Below, piece by piece: positions 50,485-64,000 of a stretch of 64,000 nt of DNA. This DNA comes from Acidimicrobiia bacterium (GTDB lineage: Bacteria; Actinomycetota; Acidimicrobiia; Spongiisociales; ZC4RG35). The notes below the pieces were generated by a model. The model had not been told where the DNA came from. It saw only the letters and a program-made list of their open reading frames with translations, and made no database searches. A program made the position numbers and the translations under genes. The stretch's first letter is position 1. Every line of letters starts with the position of its first letter. The stretch covers positions 1,193-65,192 of the forward strand of contig DASUUC010000085.1 in NCBI GenBank assembly GCA_036374335.1, read 5' to 3'.

Positions 50485-51299
50485 CGCACTCCGGATACCT
50501 GGTCACGTCCGCTGGCGATGAGCTCTGCAAGAGCGGCGCCCGGATCGTCCCGGGAGACGAGTGAGGAGCCGACGAGGGCCATGCTGTACCCCAATCCGGC
50601 GACCGAGGTGACGTGCTCGGACGTGGTGATCCCGCTTTCGGCCACCGCAGGCAGATAGTCGGGAAGATGCGGCGCCAGTGACTCGAAACGGGAGAAATCG
50701 ATGCCCAGTGTGGCCAGGTCACGGCAGTTGACCCCAACCAGCACCTCGCGATCGAAGACACGGACGGCCGTCTCCAGATCGAAGCAGTCGAAGATCTCCA
50801 CCAGAACGAACATGCCCAGGTCGAGCGTCTGGTCGGTCATCTCCTCCAACAGGTCACCGGGCAGCATCCGGGTGATCAGGAGCACACCGGAGGCTCCCGC
50901 GGCCCTGGCTTCCAGAACCTGAATGGGATCGACCAGGAAGTCTTTTCTCATCACCGGCAGGCCCACCGCGTCACCGACGGCCTCGAGATGGTCGAGATGC
51001 CCAAGGAATCTCGACGGTTCGGTGAGCACCGAGATGGCGGCGGCCCCGTTGGCGGCGTAGTTCTCGGCGAGCGCCACCACCCGGTCGACTGTCGCCGGGC
51101 CTTTCACCAGCTTCCCGTCGGCCGGACTAGCCAGCTTGGCCTCCGCGATCACGTCGAATCCTGCATCCGAAAAGCGAAGCGGGATCGGCGGGTGAGCCGA
51201 CGAAACCCGGGAGTCGAGGCCGGTCGCGGTTTGCGCCTGCTTGGCGTTACGCGCTCGGGCGATACTCGAATCGGTCATCTCCTGAAGGAAATCAGACAC
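50481..51299 (-). CDS. trpC: Indole-3-glycerol phosphate synthase
   Basis: 272 aa. VIAEAKLASP, SVLTEPSRF, MRKDFLVDPIQV, LVEIF, VGVNCRDL. Confidence 0.9.
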   Translation of the reverse strand: MSDFLQEMTDSSIARARNAKQAQTATGLDSRVSSAHPPIPLRFSDAGFDVIAEAKLASPADGKLVKGPATVDRVVALAENYAANGAAAISVLTEPSRFLGHLDHLEAVGDAVGLPVMRKDFLVDPIQVLEARAAGASGVLLITRMLPGDLLEEMTDQTLDLGMFVLVEIFDCFDLETAVRVFDREVLVGVNCRDLATLGIDFSRFESLAPHLPDYLPAVAESGITTSEHVTSVAGLGYSMALVGSSLVSRDDPGAALAELIASGRDQVSGVR

Positions 51300-52311
51300 C
51301 GACCGACTCCCGGGTCGCCCACGCAGTCAAACGGCCCAACAACCCTGTGGCTGCACCATCGTCCAGGGCCGTCGAAACTCGCTCGCTCGCCGCTTCGACC
51401 GTGGACCCGGTCACCCGGAGGGCGAGCCCCGCTCCCAGCACCAGCGCATCCCGGTGAGGCCCCTCTTCTCCGGCGAACACGCGTCGGATCGCTTCGGCGT
51501 TTTCGGCGGGATCGCCACCAATGAGATCGTGGGGGTCACAACGGGCGATACCGAAATCGGCCGGATCCTCAACCAGTTCGACCACTTTCCCTGGGGTCAC
51601 GTCGAAGAGGAGATACGGCCCGACCGGCGTCGGCTCGTCCCACCCCGGCTCGCCGTGAATGACGAAAGCCCGGGTGATGTCCATCCCCGAGAGGGTCTCC
51701 GCGATCATGCGCGCCGCCTCAGGGCTGTACACCCCGACGACCAGGTGTGGTGTCCGGGCCGGGTTGGCCAGCGGGCCCACGAGGTTGAAGATGGTGCGTG
51801 CTCCCATGGATTGCCGAACCGGGGCCACCGACTTCATGGCAGGGTGATACGCCGGGGCGAAGAGATAGGTGAAACCGGTGTCGGCGAATACTTCACCGGC
51901 CCGACGGGCATCCCAAGGCACGTCGAGCCCGAGCGCAGCGAGGACATCGAAGCTGCCGCTGCGACTGGAAACAGACCGGTTACCGTGTTTGATCACCTCA
52001 GCTCCCGCGGCCGCCGCGAGCAGGGCTGCTCCAGTCGACAGGTTGAGACTGCCCGATGAGTCGCCACCGGTGCCGACCACGTCGACCGCCCGCGAGGTAT
52101 CCGCGATCTCGGGACGGACCGCGAGGTCCTGCAGGCCCTGGACAAACACTCGCACCTCGCCTGCCGACTCACCCCTGGTCCGCAATGCGGCCAAAGCGGA
52201 AGCGGCCAACGCCGGATCGAGCTCCGCGGCGGTCAGGTAGCCCACCAGCGTTGCGGCTTCGTCATCGGTGAGGACTTCCCGATCCAATAGCTTGCCGATG
52301 ATTTCTCTCAT
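51292..52311 (-). CDS. trpD: Anthranilate phosphoribosyltransferase
   Basis: 339 aa. VDVVGTGGDSSGSLNLSTGAALLAAAAG, KHGNRSVSSRSGS. Confidence 0.9.
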   Translation of the reverse strand: MREIIGKLLDREVLTDDEAATLVGYLTAAELDPALAASALAALRTRGESAGEVRVFVQGLQDLAVRPEIADTSRAVDVVGTGGDSSGSLNLSTGAALLAAAAGAEVIKHGNRSVSSRSGSFDVLAALGLDVPWDARRAGEVFADTGFTYLFAPAYHPAMKSVAPVRQSMGARTIFNLVGPLANPARTPHLVVGVYSPEAARMIAETLSGMDITRAFVIHGEPGWDEPTPVGPYLLFDVTPGKVVELVEDPADFGIARCDPHDLIGGDPAENAEAIRRVFAGEEGPHRDALVLGAGLALRVTGSTVEAASERVSTALDDGAATGLLGRLTAWATRESVGV

Positions 52312-52919
52312 GACGACGCACCCACCAATCCTTCACTCCTCTCCCGGGCACGCAAACCGAGGAAGTTGGAGATGAGCCGACCTCCCAGCGGCGTGAGCAC
52401 ACTCTCGGGGTGGAACTGCACTCCTTCGACGGGCAATGATTTGTGCCGCACCCCCATGATTTCCCCGTCCGAGGTGTAGCCCGAGATAGCCAACTCGTCG
52501 GGAAGGGTCACCTCGGACACGGCGAGAGAGTGATAGCGGCCGCCGACGAAGGGGTTGGGCAGCCCGGCGAACACGGTACGGCGGTCGTGATATATCTCCG
52601 AGGACTTGCCGTGCATCAGGGACAATGCCGGATCGATCTTGCCGCCAAAAGCGACACCGATCGCCTGGTGCCCCAGACACACCCCGAGGATCGGAATGCG
52701 TCCGGCGAAATGCCGGATCATCTCGACTGACGCTCCGGCGTCCTCGGGCCGACCCGGGCCGGGGGATATCACCAGATGGGTGGGACGGATCTCGTCGGCC
52801 CGACCCGGGGTGATGTCGTCGTTGTACTCCACGCTGACCCTCACGCCCGTGGCCAGGAAGGCTTGCACCAGGTTGTAGGTGAAGGAGTCGTAGTTGTCGA
52901 CTACCAGCACGTGGCTCAT
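52308..52919 (-). CDS. trpG: Anthranilate synthase component II (glutamine amidotransferase)
   Basis: 203 aa. VLVVDNYDSFTYNLVQ, PILGVCLGHQ, GVQFHPES. Confidence 0.9.
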   Translation of the reverse strand: MSHVLVVDNYDSFTYNLVQAFLATGVRVSVEYNDDITPGRADEIRPTHLVISPGPGRPEDAGASVEMIRHFAGRIPILGVCLGHQAIGVAFGGKIDPALSLMHGKSSEIYHDRRTVFAGLPNPFVGGRYHSLAVSEVTLPDELAISGYTSDGEIMGVRHKSLPVEGVQFHPESVLTPLGGRLISNFLGLRARERSEGLVGASS

Positions 52920-54280
52920 AGGCCCTCCTTGGCCAGTTCGAGCGCCGCCTCGAGGACGGCCCCTTTGGACAGGACCTCGTGGTGCTCGGTGGCGGGGTCG
53001 CTGTCGGCCACGATCCCGGCACCGGCCTGATAGTTGTATCCACCATCTTGGAAAACGAGGGTGCGGATGGTGATCGCATGGTCCATCGCCCCGCGATGGC
53101 CGAAGTAGCCGATCGACCCCGAGTAGAGGCCGCGGGAAACCGGCTCCAACTCGTCGATGATCTCGATGGCGCGCAGTTTCGGTGCCCCGGTCACCGTTCC
53201 GGCGGGGAAGGCGGCGGCGAACAGGTCGAAGGCGTCGAGGTCGGACCGGAGATCCGCGGTCACCCCGCTGACCATGTGCATGACATGGCTGTAGCGCTCG
53301 ATGGTCTTGTAGGGGTCGACCACCACCGAACCCGGCGAGGCGGTGCGACCCACGTCGTTGCGTGCGAGGTCGACGAGCATCACGTGCTCGGCGACCTCTT
53401 TGGGGTCGGCGAGCAGTTCTCGCTCCAGACGATGGTCCTCGTCCTCGTCGGTCCCGCGGGGCCGGGTTCCTGCGATGGGGCGGAGCTCGGCCTTGCGACC
53501 GTTGAGACGGGCCAACGCCTCGGGGGACGACCCGACCACCTGCCGGTCGCCGGTGTCGAGGTAGTACATGTATGGCGATGGGTTGAGCAGCCGTAGAGCG
53601 CGATATGCTGCGAATGGGTCGACTTGGGTCTCACCGTCGAAACGGATGGAGAGCACCAACTGATAGACGTCTCCGGCGTGGATGTGCTGCTTCACCGTCT
53701 CGACGCCATCCATGTACTTGGCCTTGGTCATCGAGGGTGTGGCCGGGCCGTGACTCGCCGGCTCCTCGGCACGATCGAGCGGGCCACGCAATGCCCTCTG
53801 GACCTCCCGGCGAATTTGGCGACGCTCTTTCTCCGTACCTGAATGGAGGAGGGCCATGCGCCGGGTGAGATGATCGAAGACCAGGATCGATCTGGTCGTG
53901 ATGTACACCCCGTCCGGACCGGAACGTTGGTGGGGAGATGAGGGAAGCCGATACAGCCTTCTCACCAAATCGAAGGCGGCCACCCCGACCAGACCGCCAC
54001 CGAAGGGGGAGGCAGTGTCCTCGGGGGCGCAGACCGGGGCCATCTCGAGGGCGTGGCGGAGTCCCGCCAGGAGGCCGGTGTCGGCGAGCCGGCCGTCGAC
54101 GTGGACACCGTCATCTTCGATGGTGACCCGCTGGGTGTCGCCAAAGCCGATGAAGGAGTAGCGACCGGTGTGCCCACCCTCCACGCTCTCCAACAGATAG
54201 CGAGGCCGCAATGCCGCCAGCCGCAGATACGCCGAGACCGGGGTGTCCAGGTCTGCCGGAATGTCGAATATCGATTCCAT
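52916..54280 (-). CDS. trpE: Anthranilate synthase component I
   Basis: 454 aa. LLESVEGG, chorismate-binding C-terminus (GAPKLRAIEIIDELE, RGLYSGSIGYF). GAGGAGACC precedes ATG 54280. Confidence 0.9.
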   Translation of the reverse strand: MESIFDIPADLDTPVSAYLRLAALRPRYLLESVEGGHTGRYSFIGFGDTQRVTIEDDGVHVDGRLADTGLLAGLRHALEMAPVCAPEDTASPFGGGLVGVAAFDLVRRLYRLPSSPHQRSGPDGVYITTRSILVFDHLTRRMALLHSGTEKERRQIRREVQRALRGPLDRAEEPASHGPATPSMTKAKYMDGVETVKQHIHAGDVYQLVLSIRFDGETQVDPFAAYRALRLLNPSPYMYYLDTGDRQVVGSSPEALARLNGRKAELRPIAGTRPRGTDEDEDHRLERELLADPKEVAEHVMLVDLARNDVGRTASPGSVVVDPYKTIERYSHVMHMVSGVTADLRSDLDAFDLFAAAFPAGTVTGAPKLRAIEIIDELEPVSRGLYSGSIGYFGHRGAMDHAITIRTLVFQDGGYNYQAGAGIVADSDPATEHHEVLSKGAVLEAALELAKEGL

Positions 54281-54682: not shown

Positions 54683-55723
54683 CTAGCCCGTTGTCTCGTT
54701 GACGATCGGAGCCACCTTTGTTCCCAATAGTTCGATACTGCGCAACACCTTGTCATGGGGCATGGTGCCCACGCTCACGTGCAACTCGAAGCGGTTGACA
54801 CCCAGCAGCTCCTTGAATCGGAGGATCTTCGCCGCCACCGTCTCAGGGTCACCGAGAACGAGGGAGCCTTCAGGCGACCGCATCCAGTCGAACTGCTCTT
54901 TGGTCATCGGGCCCCAGCCTCGCTCTCGACCGAGACGTGTCATCGCCGCCGCATAGGAGGCGTAGTACTCCTCAGCGGCCTGCTCGTTGTTGTCCGAGAC
55001 GTAGCCGTGGGCATGGACCGATAGCGGCACCTCCTCACGGTCGTATCCCGACTCCTGAAGGGTGCGGCGGAACAGCTCGGCGAGAGGGGTGAACCGATCG
55101 GGGGCACCGCCGATGATGGCCAGGGCCACCGCCAGACCGCGAGTAGCGGCGCGCACGATCGACTGGGGTGTCCCGCCGACGGCGACACGTATCGGTAGCT
55201 CACGCTCCGGCCTGGGATAGATGCCCTGACCTTTGATCGGGGACCGGAACTGTCCCGACCAGTTGATTTCGTCTTCGCTGTCGCGGATCTGGATGAGTAG
55301 GTCGAGCTTCTCGGCGAACAGCTCGTTGTAGTCGTCGAGGTTGTACCCGAACAGGGGAAAGGACTCGATGAACGATCCTCGACCCACCAGTAACTCGGCA
55401 CGTCCTGACGACACGAGATCCAATGTCGAGTACTGCTGAAACACTCGGACCGGGTCGTCGGTGCTGAGAATCGACACGGCTGGGAAGAGACGGATCTTCG
55501 ACGTCCGCCCGGCGGCAGCGGCGAGGACTACAGCGGGTGCCGAGGAGGCGAAATCCGGTCGATGATGCTCCCCGAGCCCGTACACGTCGAGACCGACCGA
55601 CTCGGCCGCTTCGACTTCTTCGAGGATCTGGCGGAGTCGTTCCCCGTGGCTGACAGGAGGTTCGCCACCGTGGGAGGGGATGGTCTCGGCGAAGCTGGTG
55701 ATTCCTAATTCCATGTTCATCAA
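54683..55723 (-). CDS. LLM-class (luciferase-like) flavin-dependent oxidoreductase
   Basis: 346 aa. MELGITSFAET ... HHRPDFASSAPAVVLAAAAGRT is typical of the luciferase-like monooxygenase family. Confidence 0.85.
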   Translation of the reverse strand: MMNMELGITSFAETIPSHGGEPPVSHGERLRQILEEVEAAESVGLDVYGLGEHHRPDFASSAPAVVLAAAAGRTSKIRLFPAVSILSTDDPVRVFQQYSTLDLVSSGRAELLVGRGSFIESFPLFGYNLDDYNELFAEKLDLLIQIRDSEDEINWSGQFRSPIKGQGIYPRPERELPIRVAVGGTPQSIVRAATRGLAVALAIIGGAPDRFTPLAELFRRTLQESGYDREEVPLSVHAHGYVSDNNEQAAEEYYASYAAAMTRLGRERGWGPMTKEQFDWMRSPEGSLVLGDPETVAAKILRFKELLGVNRFELHVSVGTMPHDKVLRSIELLGTKVAPIVNETTG

Positions 55724-55784
55724 ACAACGCGTATCAGGGCCGCTCCCTTCCCCTCTAACCGTCTGAGAGAGGCAGAGGAGAGCG

Positions 55785-56018
55785 ATGACTACGTCGGCTA
55801 GATACCCCGGAGGAGCAAGGGCTCAACCGGGTTCACCGCGGGCCAAAGCCGTGGTAGCGGGTGCGGTCATCGCCCTGGCCACCGCAATCGCGGGGACCGC
55901 GCTGTTGGCCGGCCTCGCCACCGGCTCATCCATCGAGGCGCCCGACCAGCCCGTCGTCCCGGTCACCCAACCGGCCGAGAGGAACTCGCCTCTCTCGAGC
56001 GGAGCGACCTACGACTGA
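55785..56018 (+). CDS. Small membrane-anchored/secreted hypothetical protein
   Basis: 77 aa. GAGGAGAGCG precedes the ATG. One hydrophobic helix (AVVAGAVIALATAIAGTALLAGLA). Followed by a strong terminator. Confidence 0.5.
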   Translation: MTTSARYPGGARAQPGSPRAKAVVAGAVIALATAIAGTALLAGLATGSSIEAPDQPVVPVTQPAERNSPLSSGATYD

Positions 56019-56076: not shown

Positions 56077-56113
56077 GACCCCGGGCCCCATCAAGGGCCC
56101 GGGGTCACCTTTT
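56077..56113 (+). terminator. Intrinsic terminator (perfect 12-bp stem)
   Basis: gaccccgggccc-catcaa-gggcccggggtc followed by accttttgt. Confidence 0.75.
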
Positions 56114-56249: not shown

Positions 56250-56435
56250 TCAAAAGGCCGGACGCAACACTTTGCGCCGCGACGCCTCACGAGAACGCCG
56301 GTTCCACAAGCCGGGACCGACGGATCGGTTGCCCAGGTACCTCTTCACCGGGTTGTCCAACGACTCGAGCGGCCGATTGGCCCACGCCCATCGTCGACCC
56401 CGACGAGAGATCCTTGCTCGGGACATGTAGAGCAT
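56250..56435 (-). CDS. Hypothetical small Arg/Trp-rich basic protein (61 aa)
   Basis: MLYMSRARISRRGRRWAWANRPLESLDNPVKRYLGNRSVGPGLWNRRSREASRRKVLRPAF. GAGAGGAGAG lies 3 nt upstream of ATG 56435. About 74% GC3 by my hand count. No recognisable family. Confidence 0.35.
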   Translation of the reverse strand: MLYMSRARISRRGRRWAWANRPLESLDNPVKRYLGNRSVGPGLWNRRSREASRRKVLRPAF

Positions 56436-56440
56436 CAGCT

Positions 56441-56488
56441 CTCCTCTCTCAATCCATCGCCTCACGAGCGACGGTTACAGGAGAGGAG
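56441..56488 (-). promoter_or_regulatory. 5'-leader hairpin whose 3' arm is the SD of the 61-aa ORF (SD-sequestering structure)
   Basis: On the minus strand, CUCCUCUC (56488-56481) pairs with GAGAGGAG (56448-56441). A nested stem CCGUCGC/GCGAUGG lies between them. Confidence 0.4.
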
Positions 56489-56519
56489 GCACCGCATGTG
56501 CCCCTGATACGAAAAGAAG

Positions 56520-56574
56520 CCCCTTCTGTGCGGGTTTGTCCACCGTCAGGGTGGGCAGATCCGCACAGGATGGT
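56520..56574 (-). repeat. Family-2 hairpin element, copy C; terminator of the CHAT-sigma operon
   Basis: Arms ccttctgtgcgggt / atccgcacaggatgg with an internal CCACC/GGTGG stem. On the minus strand it is followed by GGGGCTTCTTTTCG. It abuts the TAA at 56574-56576. Confidence 0.7.
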
Positions 56575-57035
56575 TAGAGGACCACCCATTGGGTCTTGAC
56601 GACCTGGCCTCTGGTGAAACGGAGAACCATGCCCAGCGGGCCTCGGGCTATTCCGTCAGCGGTGAAGCGCCCCATGTCATCCGACTCGGTCATAAAAGAT
56701 GCTCCAGACGTGTGGAGTTCGACCGTGTAGCGAGCCGGAGGCGAGGTAGCCCCTATGAGCCGGCCGGCCGCTTCGTCGTATTCGATGTCGATCATCCACT
56801 GGCCGGCCTGAAACGAGATCATGCGGAGGGTGGTGGAAGACCGCACCCCCGCCGGCAAGTCCTCGTCGGCGGAGTCGAAGTCGAGCTCGGCGAGCTCGGC
56901 GTCGATGTCCCGCCACGTGAAGGCGGCCTTGGCAAATGCGACCACATCGGAAGGGACGGCATCACTGTCCGCGAGCGCCTTGCGGAGCATCGCGAGAAGC
57001 TTCTCATCCTCTCTGGACTGGTTGAACTCGCTCAA
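56574..57035 (-). CDS. Acidic 153-aa hypothetical protein co-translated with the ECF sigma factor (candidate sigma partner or anti-sigma)
   Basis: TTG 57035 lies 7 nt after a GGAGG that overlaps the sigma stop (TAGGAGGTG). No TM helix and no zinc-anti-sigma motif. N-terminal helical acidic region, C-terminal beta-rich region. The track ORF reaching 57398 overlaps the sigma gene and is an extension. Confidence 0.6.
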   Translation of the reverse strand: MSEFNQSREDEKLLAMLRKALADSDAVPSDVVAFAKAAFTWRDIDAELAELDFDSADEDLPAGVRSSTTLRMISFQAGQWMIDIEYDEAAGRLIGATSPPARYTVELHTSGASFMTESDDMGRFTADGIARGPLGMVLRFTRGQVVKTQWVVL

Positions 57036-57046
57036 TTGCTCACCTC

Positions 57047-57589
57047 CTAATCCAAAGAGTCGTCTGCGCCGCGCCTGATACGTGTTATAGCTGAGCGCAG
57101 CTTGTCGAGACAACGTGCTCTGGTGGGCCCGAGACTTCCGATGGGGCGCCCGATGGCCTCCGAGATCTCCTCGTAGCTGAGGGCAGGCTCGATGGTCATC
57201 AGCCTGAGCAACTGCTGACAGACTTCGTCGAGCGCACTGAACGCCTGGACGACGAAACGATGCTCCTCGTCGTCGACCAGGATTTCGTCCAGAGAAGGGC
57301 TCGGGTCTTCCACGTCGTATTGGAACTCGGTTGGCACGTCCCGCTCCTGCGCCCGGGAGACGCGCATCGCTTCCCGCCGACTCGTCGTGGCCAGCCAACC
57401 AGGGAGACGCTCGGGGTCGTTGATGGAATCAACGTTCTCGATGAGTCTGAGCCACACGGTCTGGGCGACATCCTTGGCGGTGGCATCGTCGAGACGGAAA
57501 CCCCGGGCGACCGACCAAACCATTTGACCGAATCTGTCCACGAGGGCATCCCAGGCGCTCTGTTCGCCGCCGGCGGCAAGGGTGAGCAA
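57047..57589 (-). CDS. ECF-type sigma-70 family RNA polymerase sigma factor
   Basis: 180 aa from TTG 57589. Region 2 (DALVDRFGQMVWSVARGFRLDDATAKDVAQTVWLRL) and region 4 (LSYEEISEAIGRPIGSLGPTRARCLDKLR). Confidence 0.85.
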   Translation of the reverse strand: MLTLAAGGEQSAWDALVDRFGQMVWSVARGFRLDDATAKDVAQTVWLRLIENVDSINDPERLPGWLATTSRREAMRVSRAQERDVPTEFQYDVEDPSPSLDEILVDDEEHRFVVQAFSALDEVCQQLLRLMTIEPALSYEEISEAIGRPIGSLGPTRARCLDKLRSAITRIRRGADDSLD

Positions 57590-57652
57590 TTCTCCGTGTG
57601 ATAGGGCTTCGATGCAGGGATCGTAGAGGGGCGCGTGTCGGTGGCGCCGGCC

Positions 57653-60220
57653 TCAGGCGCCCACGCAGACAAAAGATGCGGCCGCGATGAATCGCTTAGG
57701 GTCGTGGAATGCCGCCGACTGCGCCGCCGAGAGAGCGACCGCCGGTTCGCGACCGGCGACTAATCCCTTGTGGAGATCAACCATTAGATCGGACGTCGCC
57801 GACGAATCGGGGACCAAACCCACACTGGCCACCACGTTCCGTGTGCCCATCGAGAGGAGCGCAGATGTGAGCCCGGCGAGCTCGTCGCCGGCACGCGTCT
57901 CGGTGTACCCGGAGTCACATGCCGATAGGACCACCAAAGACGGCGGGTTCTCGAGGCGCTCGATGTCGTAGATGTTGAGATCACCGTCGCCGAGCCGTAG
58001 GGACGAGAACATGGGGCTCTCGACGTGGAATGAGGCGTGGCACGCGATGTGGGCAATGCCGACGCCCTCGACACCGCCCTTCAACTCATCCACGGTAGTT
58101 CCGGGAAGCATCACCCTGGCATGGTCATAGAGGGCTCCGACTCTTCGGACTTCGTCCTCGGCCACCTGGAGGTCGGGACCACCGACCACGAGCACATCAG
58201 CGCCATCGCCTGAAGCCGTGCGGGCCCTCCACCACATCTCGGCTGATGGGCTCACGGTCGGTGACCTGCCTCTGAGCCGGGGCAGGGAGGCCCAGGGCGC
58301 CGACATCAGAGTCGGGGGAGGCACGATGAGGACCGGGGCATCACCGAAATCGACTGGGCCGAACAAGGCATGATCGAGCGCTTCCAACTGCGAAGCATCG
58401 AACGATCTGCCGCGCCGCGCCGCTCTTCTCATGTCGAAACGAAGGTGACTGAGCTCACGGCCCACTCGATCCATGTCACCCAACTCGACGACCGTGGTTC
58501 GGCGGTTCCTGACCACGACAGCAAACAGTCGTCCATCGGCGACCCCCATCTCGTACAGGACGGTGTCGTCGAGCGCGTCGATCACATCTCGCAACGAGCT
58601 GTCGGCCTCCGATCCCTCTTCCCGATTGCGGACTCGTTCAGCTCTCGCGATCGTCGCTTCGAGACGTCGCCGTCGCCGCTCGAGATCACGGTCACCGCGT
58701 TTGGATGGCTTTCGCAACTCGGCGGTCACCCGTCTCAGATCGGCAAGCAGATCGCTCACCTCATCATCGCCCGAAGGTGTCACCGGTCGGACTCTCAAGG
58801 CACGGGCACGGGTCCGGTCGAGCCACTCCAGTACTCTTCGCGGACGGCCAGACTCCAACGCCAGCCGGAGGCCCATCTCCGCCAACTCGGTTCCGTGCTT
58901 CTCGATGCCCATCCTCAGCTCTGTCGCTCCGAGAGTGGCCTGATATCGATCCATCAGCCGAAGCCCGCCGCGGGCGGCGCGTGACGCTCTGCCCGGCTCA
59001 CCCTCCATCTCGGCAAGCCGGGCCTGGGCGACGGCCGATTGGAGACGGACCTCCACGGGGCCCGTCTTCGTGGCGGCGACCGGTTCGAGGTGACGCCGGG
59101 CTCGCTGCTGCTGCCCCAGCCCGTCGGCGATCCGAGCTGCGACAAACCGGGCCTGGGCCGTGGCCACCTTCATCTCTTCCCGAGCCAGTTGCTCGATCAC
59201 CGCTTCCGCCTCCACGAGCAATTCCGGCGAAGGACCACTCTCGGCGAATCTCGCTTCCACCGCGATCGCATTGGCCTCAGCGCGCCGCGGGACTCTGGCA
59301 ACGCGCCGGAAGATATCCGCCGCCGCTTGCGCGTGTTGGGCGGCCCCGCCATGGTGGCCTGCCATCAAAGCCGCCCTGGCCGCTACCAGCAAGGCGTTTG
59401 CCTGATGCTCGACATCGTTTCGGGAACCAGCCGAATTAGCTATCCTTCGAGCCGACTCGAGGGCTTCCTCAAACCGTCCGACACTGATGAGCACTTCAGC
59501 CCGGGCTACATGCTGAGGGGCATCAGCGCCCGAGATCTCCATGTGGAGAGCGTCACTCCTCTCCAGCCAGTCGAGCGCCGAGGGGATGTCACCCCGATAG
59601 AAAGCGAGAAGCCCGATGTTATGCATTATCCCGTGCGCTGCCGTTAGCTCTCCTCGCTTCTCAGCCAGCTCGTGAGCCTCCAAGAGGCAAGACTCGGCTT
59701 CTGAAAAGCGGCCCAGCGTGGTGTAGGCCCTTCCCAGCCTGTTTATCGTTTGACCGACGGAGAACTCATCTCCGAATTGCCGGAAGACCGGGAGGGCTTC
59801 CGCATATGCCCGCAGCGCTTCCATGAGATTGCCCGCGTTGTCCAACACTGCACCACTTTGGAATACGAATCTCGCCCTGAGATGAGGATCCGAGGCGGCT
59901 TCGATCCCCTCTTCAATCACCGTCAGTGACTCTTCAGTTCGGCCGGCAATGGCGAGGGAGCCGCTCATCGTCAACAGCCCCATCAATCGGAGCGCAGTGA
60001 GTCCGCCCCGGTCGGCACATTCCGCTGCCCTTCGGGCGTAAGAGATCGATTTGTGGATCTCGTTGACATGCCGGGCGGCCATACTCATCGCCCGCAGAGT
60101 CTCGGAGTGGCCCCGATAGTCCGATTCGTCGAGCTCCGCTAAGAGTTTCTCGCCCGACTCGAGTGCCGTTCTCGGGTCGGAGAGTGCTAGTTGCATCAAC
60201 TCCTCGGCAGGGCTGGTCAT
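57653..60220 (-). CDS. TPR-repeat plus CHAT-domain (caspase-like) protease
   Basis: 855 aa. About 400 N-terminal aa of TPR-like helical repeats. C-terminal CHAT region with a His...Cys dyad context (GIAHIACHASFH ... SLVVLSACDSGY). No SD. TATAAG at -12 to -7 from the ATG. Confidence 0.85.
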   Translation of the reverse strand: MTSPAEELMQLALSDPRTALESGEKLLAELDESDYRGHSETLRAMSMAARHVNEIHKSISYARRAAECADRGGLTALRLMGLLTMSGSLAIAGRTEESLTVIEEGIEAASDPHLRARFVFQSGAVLDNAGNLMEALRAYAEALPVFRQFGDEFSVGQTINRLGRAYTTLGRFSEAESCLLEAHELAEKRGELTAAHGIMHNIGLLAFYRGDIPSALDWLERSDALHMEISGADAPQHVARAEVLISVGRFEEALESARRIANSAGSRNDVEHQANALLVAARAALMAGHHGGAAQHAQAAADIFRRVARVPRRAEANAIAVEARFAESGPSPELLVEAEAVIEQLAREEMKVATAQARFVAARIADGLGQQQRARRHLEPVAATKTGPVEVRLQSAVAQARLAEMEGEPGRASRAARGGLRLMDRYQATLGATELRMGIEKHGTELAEMGLRLALESGRPRRVLEWLDRTRARALRVRPVTPSGDDEVSDLLADLRRVTAELRKPSKRGDRDLERRRRRLEATIARAERVRNREEGSEADSSLRDVIDALDDTVLYEMGVADGRLFAVVVRNRRTTVVELGDMDRVGRELSHLRFDMRRAARRGRSFDASQLEALDHALFGPVDFGDAPVLIVPPPTLMSAPWASLPRLRGRSPTVSPSAEMWWRARTASGDGADVLVVGGPDLQVAEDEVRRVGALYDHARVMLPGTTVDELKGGVEGVGIAHIACHASFHVESPMFSSLRLGDGDLNIYDIERLENPPSLVVLSACDSGYTETRAGDELAGLTSALLSMGTRNVVASVGLVPDSSATSDLMVDLHKGLVAGREPAVALSAAQSAAFHDPKRFIAAASFVCVGA

Positions 60221-60285
60221 CGTCTACTTATACTTGCAAGGGATCCGGGCCCTTGGGGCCCATCTAGCTACAGGAGGGGGAAATC

Positions 60286-61485
60286 ATGGCCGACGTGAAC
60301 GGCCATTCCGGTGACTGCTGGTGCCATTACATTCCGCATCTGATTGCGGTTCGACCAGAACAGAAGACAGAGGCCAGCGAAATCTCCGGCGGGAGGGAGT
60401 TGGAGAACGGCGAAGCCTGTCAGATCCTGGACGGTCTCGATCATGAGATCGTAGGTGAGATTCTCGACGCCGTCGGAGTGCTCAGGGTAGATGCAGCGGA
60501 TCCGCATGAACTCGTCGCCGATCTCAACTCGGGTGGGATCGACGCTTCCCCGGTCCATGGCGTGGGATATCTCGGGCATGGTGGATTCCAAGGATCTGAA
60601 CCGTCCCCGGCACCCACCATTGAGATCCCAGATCCCGGCAGAGGCGGAGACGAGATCATCGCAGTCGTCGATTCCGGGATAGTTCCCGACGATGACCTTC
60701 CCGCCTGGATGGACGATCCCAACGTCCGCAGCGAGCGCCCCATCGACACAGATACTCTGCCCGCCAAGCATCCTGTGGGCCATGGCACGTTCGTGACGAG
60801 CCTGATCCGACGGATCGCCCCCGAGCACCGGGTCTCGATCACGTCGGCGCGACCCGACCCGGGCTACCTGGTCAGCAACGATCCTGACCACAAACCTGCT
60901 CCACCGCCTACGGATGAGCTGAACGTGCTCGGTGCAGTGCTCCGGCTTCTACGGCGCCACTCCGACGACGGAAAGCTGGTGAGCGCTCTGAACCTCTCGC
61001 TGGGTGTTCACGCCTGCCCCGGAGCTGAGTACGAGCGGTTCGTGGCGTTGCGAAGGGCTTGTGAGCTCTGGGTGGAGCGTTTCGGAGACCAGGCTCCGAT
61101 CTTCGCCGCAGCAGGCAATAGTCTCTGCCCACAGCCGTTGTACCCGGCGGCGTTCAGCCGGGACAGCAAGTTCCAGGGCCACATCCATGGTGTAGCCGCC
61201 GCCCGGGAGTGCGCCAGGGAGGGTGAGATCAAGGTCTGGGACCGAGGAGTGGAAGTCCCGGCTCCGCACCGCGATTGGGTCACCGACGCCGCACCGGGAT
61301 GCGACGTCTTCGGCCTATCCGGTAAGGATCCCGATCATGTGGTGAAGTGGAGTGGCAGCTCACATGCCACGGCCGTGGTCAGCGCGGGCCATGTCATCGG
61401 GCTCTCGTCCGCCTCCGATGGGGGCGTCCGCTGGTGGGCCGACCGGGCCGTCACCTACCGGGGCGTACCCAACCTGATGCCCTGA
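60286..61485 (+). CDS. Signal-less (probably cytoplasmic) S8 subtilisin-family serine peptidase with an uncharacterised ~125-aa N-terminal region
   Basis: 399 aa. AGGAGG lies 8 nt upstream of ATG 60286. Asp-His-Ser triad contexts in order: IAVVDSGI, VGHGTFV, WSGSSHATAVVSAG. Oxyanion-hole-like AAAGNS. The N-terminal 100 codons are shadowed by an antisense ORF (see rejected items). Confidence 0.7.
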   Translation: MADVNGHSGDCWCHYIPHLIAVRPEQKTEASEISGGRELENGEACQILDGLDHEIVGEILDAVGVLRVDAADPHELVADLNSGGIDASPVHGVGYLGHGGFQGSEPSPAPTIEIPDPGRGGDEIIAVVDSGIVPDDDLPAWMDDPNVRSERPIDTDTLPAKHPVGHGTFVTSLIRRIAPEHRVSITSARPDPGYLVSNDPDHKPAPPPTDELNVLGAVLRLLRRHSDDGKLVSALNLSLGVHACPGAEYERFVALRRACELWVERFGDQAPIFAAAGNSLCPQPLYPAAFSRDSKFQGHIHGVAAARECAREGEIKVWDRGVEVPAPHRDWVTDAAPGCDVFGLSGKDPDHVVKWSGSSHATAVVSAGHVIGLSSASDGGVRWWADRAVTYRGVPNLMP

Positions 61486-61591: not shown

Positions 61592-61789
61592 CTAATAAGC
61601 GGGACTTGCGGGGTGGACCTTGCCGTCTCGATCGCGAGACCCCACACCGGCGAGCCCTCGGGCCAGTGCCATCAGCAACTCGTATAGTGAGGGGCCCCCG
61701 CCTGCACGGGACCGTTTCGGGGACTGATCCCTCGAATCCGGGCCATACCTGTGCTCCCGCATCGCTTCAACCTGTTGGAAAGTGAACAT
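61592..61789 (-). CDS. Hypothetical 65-aa protein
   Basis: GAAGGGAG lies 6 nt upstream of ATG 61789, and a hairpin follows the stop. No recognised motif (MFTFQQVEAMREHRYGPDSRDQ...). Confidence 0.35.
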   Translation of the reverse strand: MFTFQQVEAMREHRYGPDSRDQSPKRSRAGGGPSLYELLMALARGLAGVGSRDRDGKVHPASPAY

Positions 61790-61866
61790 GTGGTCTCCCT
61801 TCGGGAATCTCGCTCCCTCTTCGGTATGGAAGAGTCAGTGAGACCTCTGTTGATACATCCCGTCGA

Positions 61867-63966
61867 TCACGTGTTGAGCACCACCACAGAACACGGCGAA
61901 TCCCTGATGATCCGCTCGACCCGGGGGCCCAGGAAGAGACGCTGGGTGCCGACGCGGACACTGGTACCGAGCACCATCAAGTCGACCCCGCGGCTGGCCC
62001 GGTCCACGATGCTTGCGGTCATCGCACCACCCATGAGCACCTCGGAGAGGACAGACACGCCCGAGCTCTCTCCGGCCTGACGTAGCTCGGTGACGATCTC
62101 CTGGCCGATCTCCATCCGAGTCGCCGCCGAGGAGGCGCGGCCTATCCCCGACTCGCTCCCTGATTCGGGATCGACCACATGAATCAACAGCACCGTGGTC
62201 TCCCGCCCGGCGACGGCGAACGCGAAGTCGGCTGCCCGGGTCGCGGCATGGCTGCCACCCGTAGGGACCATGATGGTCCGCGGCGGCCACTGATCGCCCC
62301 GGGCGGTGAAGACCAGAGACGGACACGGGGCGAGACGCACCACTTCGTCGATGACCGACCCGAAAAGCGACTCGTCATCCGGATGGTCCTCGGTGGCACC
62401 CAGGGCAACGAGATCGAATCCCTTAGCTGCTTCGTCGACGATGGCCCTCACCGGATCGCCTCTCACCACGCGCCGCTTCATGGTCAGTCCCCTGGGGAAC
62501 GACGCTGCCACGGTCTTCAGGTACCTATCGGCGAGCTCGGTCTCCGTATCGTCGACGACGGAGAGAAGAGTGACCTGAGCGCCGGGCTCGCCGACCGCGG
62601 CGAGTGCCGACGCCTCCAGCGACCTCAGCTCGTCCCCTCCCCTGTCCCTGACCCGAACCGGGAGAAGTGCGCGACGAAATACAAGGCGGCTGTCCTCCGG
62701 GACCTCCTCCTCGCCTTCACCAAACACCAACTTGAGCCCAACTGGCGCCATCACGGAGGTCAAGAGCGAGGTCACCACCACCATCGAATAGATCTCGACG
62801 CCGAAAATGCCCATCGACAAACCAACCGTGGCGACCACGATCCCGAGGACACCTCGGGCGTTGAGGGCGATCCCGTAGCCAAGGGCATCGCGTCTGGGAG
62901 TTCTGGCCAACCAGCGGGCGCCGAGATAGCCCCCACCGAGCTTCCCGGCTGCAGCCACCAGAAAGAGCAACAAGGTCATAACCAACAACCCGGGCTCGAG
63001 CAGCTGGTCGATGCGCAAACGAAGGCCCGCCGTGGCCAGGAAGATCGGAGCGAAGACGCCGTTGGTGACGCTCTCCAGTTTGTGGGTCACGTCGATCGGC
63101 ATCTGGCGAACCTGGCCGAAGAGGACCCCCACGGCGAACGCCCCGAGTATTGGCTCGAGATGAAGCCATTGTGAGAAAGCGCCCCACCCGAAGGCGAGTG
63201 CCACGACGAACGTGAGTGCCATGTCACGGGACGTCGAGAGATCGATGATGAAGCCCAGCGCCCAGCGGACCGGTCGAGCCAGGAGATACGTCGCCGCGAA
63301 GAAGAGGACGATCGCTCCAATGGTTGCCGCCACTGCTCCCACCGTGAGCACCCCGGCGGATGCCAGGGAGATCACCATTCCCAAGAGGGCCCAACCGGTC
63401 ATGTCGTCGATCATCCCGGCGGCGAGGGCGGTCTGACCGAATTCGCGCTTGAGCAATCGGAGGTCGGAAAGGATCTTGGCCAACACCGGTATCGCGGAGA
63501 GAGCGAGAGCGACGGCGAGGAACAGGGCGAACACGGTCCGGTCTTCACCGGCTAGCAACGACGCGGGAGCGAACAGGGCAGCGAGGAATCCGAAGGCAAA
63601 CGGCACCACCAAGCCGCCAAATCCCACACCGGCGGCGGCCCGCCAACGAGTCTTGATGAGACTCAAATCGGTTTCTAGCCCGACCACGATCATCAAGAAC
63701 AGGATGCCGATGAGAGCTATCGAGTCGAGTAGCTGTGACTGAACCTCGGTCTGGGGCAGGAGCCAAGCGCCGAATCCCGGCAGGAGCCCGGACAGAAGCG
63801 ACGGTCCGAGGATGACCCCTGCAAGGATCTCACCCACCACTGCGGGCTGGCGGAGCCTGCGGGCCAGTTCCCCGAGCAGACGGGCCGAAGCCAACAGCAC
63901 GCCGACCGAGAAGACGAGTTTCAGCAGGTCCCCGTGGGATATGCCCGGAAAAGCATCCAACCGCAC
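61867..63966 (-). CDS. CPA2-family cation:proton antiporter fused to two C-terminal universal stress protein (USP) domains
   Basis: 699 aa. Kef/NapA-type N-terminus (LLGELARRLRQPAVVGEILAGVILGPS) with about 12 TM helices. Two USP-like repeats follow (DLVALGATE...LAPCPSLVF; DLMVLGTSV...DSPCSVVVL). Confidence 0.85.
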   Translation of the reverse strand: MRLDAFPGISHGDLLKLVFSVGVLLASARLLGELARRLRQPAVVGEILAGVILGPSLLSGLLPGFGAWLLPQTEVQSQLLDSIALIGILFLMIVVGLETDLSLIKTRWRAAAGVGFGGLVVPFAFGFLAALFAPASLLAGEDRTVFALFLAVALALSAIPVLAKILSDLRLLKREFGQTALAAGMIDDMTGWALLGMVISLASAGVLTVGAVAATIGAIVLFFAATYLLARPVRWALGFIIDLSTSRDMALTFVVALAFGWGAFSQWLHLEPILGAFAVGVLFGQVRQMPIDVTHKLESVTNGVFAPIFLATAGLRLRIDQLLEPGLLVMTLLLFLVAAAGKLGGGYLGARWLARTPRRDALGYGIALNARGVLGIVVATVGLSMGIFGVEIYSMVVVTSLLTSVMAPVGLKLVFGEGEEEVPEDSRLVFRRALLPVRVRDRGGDELRSLEASALAAVGEPGAQVTLLSVVDDTETELADRYLKTVAASFPRGLTMKRRVVRGDPVRAIVDEAAKGFDLVALGATEDHPDDESLFGSVIDEVVRLAPCPSLVFTARGDQWPPRTIMVPTGGSHAATRAADFAFAVAGRETTVLLIHVVDPESGSESGIGRASSAATRMEIGQEIVTELRQAGESSGVSVLSEVLMGGAMTASIVDRASRGVDLMVLGTSVRVGTQRLFLGPRVERIIRDSPCSVVVLNT

Positions 63967-64000
63967 ACACCTTCCTCTGTGCCTACGGGGTTAGCTGACG

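Follow-up and report, generated by a model that had tools for sequence, protein, structure and literature searches.

A probable ECF54 locus in an Acidimicrobiia bacterium: two predicted cytoplasmic proteases, a sigma factor and a candidate soluble anti-sigma protein

Results

Organization of the locus

The DNA analyzed here is a stretch of 64,000 nucleotides (nt) from an Acidimicrobiia bacterium (GenBank assembly GCA_036374335.1, contig DASUUC010000085.1, positions 1,193–65,192), the whole of which is called the window below and is numbered from its first letter. Four of its adjacent genes encode a protein built from tetratricopeptide repeats (TPR) and a CHAT protease domain, a sigma factor of the extracytoplasmic function (ECF) type, an acidic protein of 153 residues, named P153, and a subtilase-like protease of peptidase family S8. 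An earlier reading of the sequence alone, referred to as the original prediction, had described these genes as a candidate undescribed system, and the list of open reading frames (ORFs) of the window places all four where it had put them (Table I). On the minus strand the CHAT and sigma factor ORFs are separated by 63 nt, and the ribosome-binding site of P153 (GGAGGTG) overlaps the TAG stop codon of the sigma factor gene. The S8 gene lies on the opposite strand and is divergent, its start being 65 bp away from that of the CHAT gene.

The two proteases

According to Pfam, the CHAT protein is composed of TPR and CHAT domains only. The CHAT domain (PF12770) covers residues 613–854 with an E-value of 1.5e-29 and 103.8 bits, against a cut-off of 24, and is accompanied by matches to TPR_12 and TPR_MalT. 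Both motifs surrounding the caspase-like active site, HIACHAS and LSACDSG, are present and contain the predicted catalytic residues His728 and Cys768. Each of the two is invariant among the relatives that cover the site (51/51 for His, 51/51 for Cys), so that the degenerate dyad against which the original prediction had warned is not what the alignment reveals. The protein has no transmembrane segment, the hydrophobic maxima of CHAT proteins being located inside the CHAT fold.

The S8 protein begins with a non-catalytic region of about 120 residues. Its score against the Pfam S8 model (PF00082) is 16.6 bits and thus falls below the cut-off of 21.8, although its relatives do carry PF00082; the mycosin model yields 28 bits for a cut-off of 279. 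The motifs VVDSG, GHGT, AAGN and SGSS are nevertheless all found, and the corresponding residues do not vary in the relatives (Asp129 in 63/63, His166 in 68/68, Asn278 in 70/70, Ser359 in 70/70). The N-terminus is not hydrophobic in the window protein, and a hydrophobic N-terminal segment appears in just one of 68 relatives. The divergent S8-like peptidase without signal peptide is borne out by ORF and motifs, the Pfam score of the window protein being below threshold. Judged from their conserved active-site residues, both proteases are predicted to be catalytically competent.

The sigma factor and P153

The window sigma factor is a minimal protein consisting of regions 2 and 4 without any extension; region 4 bears the family signature GSxGPTRxRCL. 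Its closest relative of solved structure is SigK of Mycobacterium tuberculosis (PDB entry 4NQW, E-value 1.5e-6), and a profile search recovers at least 7995 family members at E ≤ 1e-20. None of 99 sigma factors contains a hydrophobic segment.

P153 counts 25 Asp and Glu against 15 Lys and Arg residues, which goes along with an isoelectric point of 4.5; it has a single His and no Cys. No hydrophobic segment is found in P153 or in any of 110 relatives, and the absence of both transmembrane helix and zinc motif noted in the original prediction was thus recovered. P153 is identical to a hypothetical protein from a metagenome-assembled genome of Acidimicrobiia and has 165 close homologues, almost all of them 151–154 residues in length. 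Searching its profile against 1.84 billion representative proteins reveals a large family from Actinomycetota: 2383 clusters pass E ≤ 1e-3, of which 1125 also pass E ≤ 1e-10. Neither Pfam nor NCBIfam matches the window protein itself, and no match to the Pfam families ASD, zf-HC2 or RskA was obtained for P153 or its relatives; 23 of 60 distant family members match PF13620 (CarboxypepD_reg), with a best E-value of 1.6e-6.

The AlphaFold2 model of P153 has a mean predicted local distance difference test score of 70. It comprises two helices (residues 8–23 and 29–42), a stretch of low confidence (38–69) and a confidently predicted β-sandwich of eight strands (72–152). The low-confidence stretch corresponds to an acidic linker with the conserved sequence WRxIDAELAxLxxDS...GVR, and the most conserved residues of the whole family (W41, R42, D45, L48, A49, L51, D54, S55 and R65) are all located there. 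Such a pattern, in which the least confidently modeled segment is the best conserved one, agrees either with folding of this segment upon contact with a partner or with a site of recognition or cleavage. Foldseek comparison of the model with the PDB returned only generic immunoglobulin- or fibronectin III-like sandwiches (E ≥ 5e-3), and the P153 profile found nothing better than E 0.19 among PDB sequences; neither search gave a match to the Csx30, Csx31 or anti-sigma folds named in the original prediction. From two helices, a conserved acidic linker and a β-sandwich, the modeled P153 looks like a candidate soluble anti-sigma factor.

One natural fusion of the sigma factor with P153 was found (P0249, 319 residues, with a Sigma70_r2 match), a single case among the representative proteins. 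Two other relatives depart from the usual P153 layout: P0219 seems to be a frameshifted fusion of sigma region 4 with the partner, and P0125 carries the N-terminal helix and the WRTIDAELA motif twice, followed by one β-sandwich. Because hydrophobic or transmembrane segments are essentially missing from all four protein families, the module is predicted to be entirely cytoplasmic.

Conservation of the module

Related loci were sampled by means of a degenerate DNA pattern for WRxxDAELAxLxxD, applied to contigs from one genome per species, which returned at least 119 stretches, and were scored with profiles built in this analysis. All sources taken together, 118 loci carry the partner family. As most of them are blocks of 8 kb in which the module is truncated, the counts given for the proteases are minimum figures.

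The sigma factor gene is located directly upstream of the P153 gene, and on the same strand, in 95 of the 102 assessable loci. The distance between sigma stop and partner start clusters from −8 to +30 nt, −4 being the commonest value; P153 hence sits, translationally coupled, in the gene position usual for anti-sigma factors, as had been proposed. Both proteases are visible in 60 of the 118 loci and one of the two in 25; two loci (L077 and L100) show neither, with at least 3 kb visible on both sides. The genes occur in the orders <S8 CHAT> sigma> P153> (the one of the window, 16 loci), <CHAT S8> sigma> P153> (16 loci), sigma> P153> <S8 CHAT> (11 loci) and S8> sigma> P153> CHAT> (6 loci). These four orders identify as the stable units the pair sigma>P153, on the one hand, and the divergent pair S8<>CHAT, on the other hand.

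In a relative with 59% identity in the partner, all four genes are present and their chromosomal setting is unchanged, next to the trp operon and a luciferase-like monooxygenase. Carbonactinospora thermoautotrophica encodes S8, sigma factor, partner and CHAT in this order on a single strand, and in two further actinobacterial genomes CHAT, sigma factor and partner follow one another, with S8 divergent from them, beside genes for dynamin-like GTPases; flanking genes thus vary between lineages. The taxa in which the module was found include Acidimicrobiia, Thermoleophilia, Kribbella, Nocardioides, Microlunatus and Pseudonocardia as well as Amycolatopsis, Catenulispora, Jiangella, Microbispora, Pseudofrankia and Cellulomonas, and all true matches of the genome scan are from Actinomycetota. 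The association of the four genes is real and far beyond chance. Since loci throughout Actinomycetota combine the same families, in at least four gene orders and between different flanks, the comparison, which the original prediction had called for, supports a functionally linked unit of proteases, sigma factor and small partner that is widely conserved in Actinobacteria.

A promoter-like motif and its neighboring genes

Two-block enumeration on upstream regions, with a GC-rich background as reference, led to the motif GTATC...CTCT, whose consensus is (T)GTATCA(G)-N15/16-(G)CTCT(G/T). The 977 kb of locus sequence contain 148 instances of the pattern GTATC-N17/18-CTCY, as compared with about 24 in shuffled sequences. 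Counts for the individual genes were made up to 250 nt upstream with a slightly relaxed −10 block, taking antisense matches as control. The motif precedes the sigma factor gene in 38 of 93 cases (8 antisense), the P153 gene in 23 of 105 (1 antisense) and the S8 gene in 12 of 62 (2 antisense). It is found at just one of 66 CHAT genes, and the 14 antisense matches counted there correspond to divergent S8 or other promoters. Where the gene order is <S8 CHAT> sigma> P153>, the motif lies between CHAT and sigma in 11 of 16 loci. Motifs linked to P153 are located within the 3' end of the sigma factor gene, approximately 46–60 nt before the partner start, and their spacers are not conserved across distant lineages, which argues for a DNA signal and not for a coding constraint. 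We infer that the motif sites are promoters recognized by this sigma factor.

Four exact matches to the pattern are present in the 64 kb of the window, where 0.74 would be expected, and all of them fall between 55.7 and 61.9 kb (Table I). One lies before P153; the others precede small ORFs, and a variant with one mismatch is found 56 nt upstream of the gene for a luciferase-like monooxygenase that adjoins P153 also in the related contig L001. Small ORF A is conserved directly downstream of P153 in seven loci and is preceded by the motif in L109, L110, L054 and L015, which makes it a candidate lineage-specific member of the sigma regulon; it has no Pfam match and is not called as a gene in L001. 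Small ORF B is weakly supported as a conserved motif-linked ORF; counterparts resembling it come after the motif in L109, L001 and L015. The ORF of 77 residues, a further candidate regulon member, has no sequence homologue detectable by tblastn; in L014 (twice) and L054, however, the motif is succeeded by analogous ORFs with an N-terminal anchor.

Surroundings of the module

The strong terminator with which the original prediction had closed the minus-strand unit was not recovered. Scanning for terminators yields none on the minus strand after the P153 stop codon, and the hairpin just behind this codon does not stand out from shuffled sequences (z = −1.4) and is followed by the promoter-like motif and the conserved small ORF. 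Close to the end of the unit, the sole structure that resembles a strong terminator is a palindromic hairpin about 470 nt further on. The lower GC content suspected for the TPR-coding part is there (0.585–0.60, versus 0.645–0.695 in the middle of the gene) but is unremarkable, because it falls inside the local range of 0.575–0.695; with this dip within range and the synteny conserved, a reading as GC anomaly or horizontal transfer was rejected. Rfam and tRNA scans of the region 54–64 kb identified nothing in the gap of 850 nt after P153. As had been stated, neither a Cas7-11 (gRAMP) gene nor a CRISPR array accompanies the module: the whole window contains no CRISPR-like repeat array and no ORF of Cas7-11 size, none exceeding 860 residues, and of its five ORFs of at least 600 residues only CHAT is near the module.

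Just downstream of the monooxygenase gene are ORFs for tryptophan biosynthesis, and the same synteny is observed in L001, which indicates a stable core-genome location of the module in this clade. At the other end, a partial match to the c-di-AMP riboswitch (24.3 bits, below the threshold of 38, and cut by the end of the window) lies directly upstream of a gene for a Na+/H+ exchanger–Usp fusion.

Table I. Coordinates of the module genes, motif sites and neighboring features in the window
Feature	Position	Strand	Remarks
TPR-CHAT caspase-like cysteine protease, 855 aa, predicted cytoplasmic	57653..60220	−	Pfam CHAT and TPR families
ECF-type sigma factor, 180 aa, TTG start	57047..57589	−	Sigma70_r2 9e-11; TIGR02937 2.7e-19
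P153, acidic partner, 153 aa, candidate soluble anti-sigma, TTG start	56574..57035	−	Ribosome-binding site and ORF
S8 subtilase-like serine protease, 399 aa, predicted cytoplasmic	60286..61485	+	Motifs and relatives
Motif GTATCA-N16-CTCT	57056..57081	−	Inside sigma 3' end, 21 nt upstream of P153 start
Motif GTATCA-N16-CTCC	56485..56510	−	Downstream of P153, upstream of small ORF A
Motif GTATCA-N16-CTCT	61831..61856	−	Upstream of small ORF B
Motif GTATCA-N16-CTCT	55731..55756	+	Upstream of 77-aa ORF
Motif variant GTATCT-N17-CTCT, one mismatch	55779..55805	−	Upstream of monooxygenase gene
Small ORF A, 61 aa, very basic, MLYMS...RRWAW...DNPVKRYLGNRS...RPAF	56250..56435	−	Directly downstream of P153
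Small ORF B, 65 aa, ...LYELLMALARGLAGVG...PASPAY	61592..61789	−	Convergent with S8, motif-preceded
77-aa single-pass membrane ORF, one hydrophobic helix	55785..56018	+	Motif-preceded
Perfect 12-bp palindromic hairpin with T-run	56077-56106		Between small ORF A and 77-aa ORF
Luciferase-like monooxygenase	54683..55723	−	
Tryptophan biosynthesis ORFs (trpE-, trpG-, trpD-like)	51292-54280	−	
Na+/H+ exchanger–Usp fusion gene	61867..63966	−	
c-di-AMP riboswitch, partial match	63966-64000	−	

Discussion

A protease-gated sigma factor as working model

P153 is probably an inhibitor of the sigma factor. Its reading as the cognate soluble anti-sigma factor is based on the near-universal position directly behind the sigma factor gene, the translational coupling, the fusion protein and the anatomy of two helices followed by a conserved linker. 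The best current model, to which we would give about an even chance of being right, is a cytoplasmic ECF switch gated by proteolysis, in which CHAT, possibly together with S8, cleaves P153 and thereby frees the sigma factor. The stand-alone proteolytic switch of the original prediction thus remains a reasonable proposal. The N-terminal helices and the WRxIDAELAxL segment of P153 would grip the sigma factor, while the TPR-CHAT protein, made independently of the latter, would sense an intracellular cue through its TPR array. CHAT would then cut P153, either alone or as part of a cascade that involves the divergent S8 protease; the cut would probably fall within the conserved acidic linker (residues 43–69), between D54-S55 and V64-R65. 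The freed sigma factor may transcribe from GTATCA-N16-CTCT promoters. As judged from the motif positions, its targets would be its own gene, P153 as a reset, S8 as an amplification step in many lineages, and lineage-specific small proteins. CHAT fits a sensor that is needed before the signal arrives, because its dyad is kept, it has a TPR array and it stands outside the motif-marked regulon; S8 fits a second protease of the cascade or an amplifier, as it is always beside CHAT and often motif-linked or co-transcribed with the sigma factor.

Several observations weigh against this model. No similarity was detected between P153 and anti-sigma domains, Csx30 or Csx31, or solved structures other than generic immunoglobulin-like sandwiches, and the fusion protein P0249 could be an artefact of assembly or frameshift. 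Four loci (L077, L100, L037 and L059) contain sigma factor and P153 without proteases within 3–6 kb, which implies that the proteases may not be required or may have their genes at other sites. As for the motif, its strict pattern is found upstream of just 20–40% of the genes and was not found in the order S8> sigma> P153> CHAT>. The window's own sigma, S8 and CHAT genes have no convincing motif upstream, the best candidate before the sigma factor gene having two mismatches and overlapping its start codon.

Alternative explanations

The strongest alternative, in our view unlikely all the same, sees in the proteases and in P153 the outputs of the sigma factor. The latter would be controlled elsewhere, through transcription or by an unlinked factor, and would drive a program of cytoplasmic proteolysis and stress response, P153 being a substrate adaptor or a chaperone-like β-sandwich protein. 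Target-like behavior is indeed suggested by the motif in front of the P153 and S8 genes and by the further motif-linked genes of the same neighborhood, namely the small ORFs and the monooxygenase. Moreover, P153 is devoid of anti-sigma homology, and the authors of the ECF classification caution that conserved neighbors may be targets and not regulators (PMC7826278). On the other hand, with the motif at just 1 of 66 genes CHAT is no obvious target, whereas the near-universal position behind the sigma factor gene, the translational coupling and the one fusion are hallmarks of a sigma/anti-sigma pair. The motif before P153 does not discriminate between the two explanations, since anti-sigma genes are normally sigma targets too.

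We consider it less probable still that the sigma factor itself is the substrate of the proteases, through processing of a pro-sigma form or conditional degradation as for BldN or AntA, with P153 as an adaptor that presents or protects it. The lengths of the sigma factors, which range from 132 to 275 residues, and the N-terminal extensions of some relatives would be compatible with such processing, but the window protein with its 180 residues has no extension, and the strongly conserved linker predicted to be disordered belongs to P153 and not to the sigma factor.

Finally, an anti-phage or conflict system, in which TPR-CHAT senses the invader, the proteases act as abortive-infection effectors and the sigma factor drives a defense regulon, in other words a CRISPR-independent analogue of Craspase or DdvA-DdvS, appears improbable: although type III-E systems (PMC10028731) and the DdvA-DdvS pair of Myxococcus (PMC11506125) link CHAT proteases and ECF sigma factors to defense, and TPR arrays are common sensors, PADLOC gives no significant match for any of the four proteins, the window has neither Cas genes nor a CRISPR array, no mobile-element or defense-island context was seen in the loci inspected, and the housekeeping flanks (trp operon, monooxygenase, Na+/H+ exchanger–Usp), together with synteny down to 59% partner identity, point to vertical inheritance in the core genome.

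Significance

New here, each as a hypothesis, are a candidate class of anti-sigma factors, a promoter-like motif that CHAT genes almost never carry, the architecture of two gene pairs and the small ORFs. In its widest form, the protease-gated model states that the CarboxypepD_reg-like proteins of about 150 residues encoded after these sigma factor genes constitute a new structural class of soluble anti-sigma factors, destroyed by a cytoplasmic TPR-CHAT protein and a subtilase upon an intracellular cue. There would then exist a CRISPR-independent, Craspase-like switch with its own promoter code (GTATCA-N16-CTCT) at thousands of loci in Actinomycetota. We advance this generalization as tentative, at somewhat less than even chances. 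If P153 is indeed a soluble anti-sigma factor removed by a caspase-like protease, the established mechanisms for releasing ECF sigma factors would be joined by one that is fully cytoplasmic and involves two proteases. It would also mean that a major phylum uses the protease/anti-sigma/sigma logic of type III-E CRISPR systems for ordinary signaling, in a module inherited vertically. The mechanism is cheaply testable by way of the candidate promoter motif and the conserved P153 linker, and Kribbella, Nocardioides, Catenulispora, Microbispora rosea and Carbonactinospora thermoautotrophica are among the culturable bacteria that carry the module.

Relation to ECF54 and to other known systems

The ECF54 group, reportedly defined by Huang et al. 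in 2015, is among the few sizeable ECF groups that have neither a known regulator nor a studied member. Its conserved genetic context was described in a 2022 review as comprising carboxypeptidase, subtilase and CHAT domain proteins, from which proteolytic control without an anti-sigma factor was proposed (PMC8999054). The group was kept in the 2021 classification of Casas-Pastor et al. as actinobacterial and without putative anti-sigma factor or clear regulator (PMC7826278). The trio of CHAT, subtilase-like (S8) and carboxypeptidase(-regulatory-like) family proteins is found in the window and in the related loci, next to an actinobacterial ECF sigma factor that has no recognizable anti-sigma domain protein beside it. 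As the locus matches the published description feature for feature, it very probably belongs to ECF54, an assignment judged by the match in gene context. Since this context is already published, the system is not undescribed, contrary to the original prediction. The latter had also held that a described ECF group of known mechanism would speak against it; this applies in part, the group being described and proteolytic regulation having been proposed for it in the literature, with no member studied experimentally. The two views differ in that no anti-sigma factor is seen in the literature, whereas we propose the CarboxypepD_reg-like protein encoded directly behind the sigma factor gene as one. 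The ECF54 model protein is SFT86700.1 from Geodermatophilus amargosae (PMC8999054); no Geodermatophilus protein is among the best 120 matches listed for our sigma factor profile. In addition, the 2021 text places ECF54 near a 4Fe-4S protein (PMC7826278), whereas the 2022 review attributes the Fe-S/DUF3470 neighbor to ECF58 (PMC8999054); unlike the 2021 description, only 2 of about 119 loci have a nearby ORF with the ferredoxin-type motif CxxCxxCxxxCP.

Cleavage of Csx30 by Csx29 in type III-E systems, which relieves CASP-sigma, is a precedent for a CHAT protease that cuts a sigma factor inhibitor (PMC10028731). Both here and in Craspase a TPR-CHAT protein is encoded with an ECF-type sigma factor and a small possible restrainer, and the logic proposed here is the same, a protease lifting the inhibition of the sigma factor. 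The present module differs from Craspase by its additional S8 protease and by the lack of Cas7-11 and of a CRISPR array in the window, and its activation cannot be RNA-guided. Homology with the type III-E components was not supported. Orthology of CHAT with Csx29 was rejected, the corresponding model NF041237 matching with an E-value of 7.7e-4 and 18.4 bits, against a cut-off of 300, and only around the active site (residues 724–799). Homology of P153 with Csx30 or Csx31 was not supported either, as neither the profile search of PDB sequences nor Foldseek gave a sequence or fold match.

In the DdvA-DdvS system of Myxococcus, a TPR-CHAT protein is tied to an ECF sigma factor, and CHAT proteolysis has been proposed as the releasing step (PMC11506125). 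DdvA is a periplasmic TPR-CHAT protein fused via a transmembrane helix to a zinc-binding anti-sigma domain, and RseP completes the release, whereas in the locus described here CHAT is separate and predicted to be cytoplasmic, the candidate anti-sigma factor has neither zinc motif nor transmembrane helix, and a subtilase is present. More generally, P153 does not display the features of class I (zinc) anti-sigma factors, HxxxCxxC and the usual transmembrane helix. The module resembles the RseA/DegS/RseP, RsiW and RsiV systems in that a dedicated protease would remove the anti-sigma factor and free an autoregulated ECF sigma factor. Those cascades start outside the cytoplasm and use membrane-spanning anti-sigma factors and S1 and S2P proteases, whereas the proteases here are caspase-like and subtilisin-like and the module is predicted to be cytoplasmic. 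In CnrY and NepR, a short class II domain of two helices takes the place of the four-helix anti-sigma domain. The AlphaFold2 model of P153 suggests a comparable sigma-binding element of about two helices; no sequence similarity to them was detected, and P153 differs by being soluble and by adding the acidic linker and the β-sandwich. In the proposed model, the locus would operate in the manner of the Craspase arm of type III-E systems, and it resembles DdvA-DdvS; it is a member of neither.

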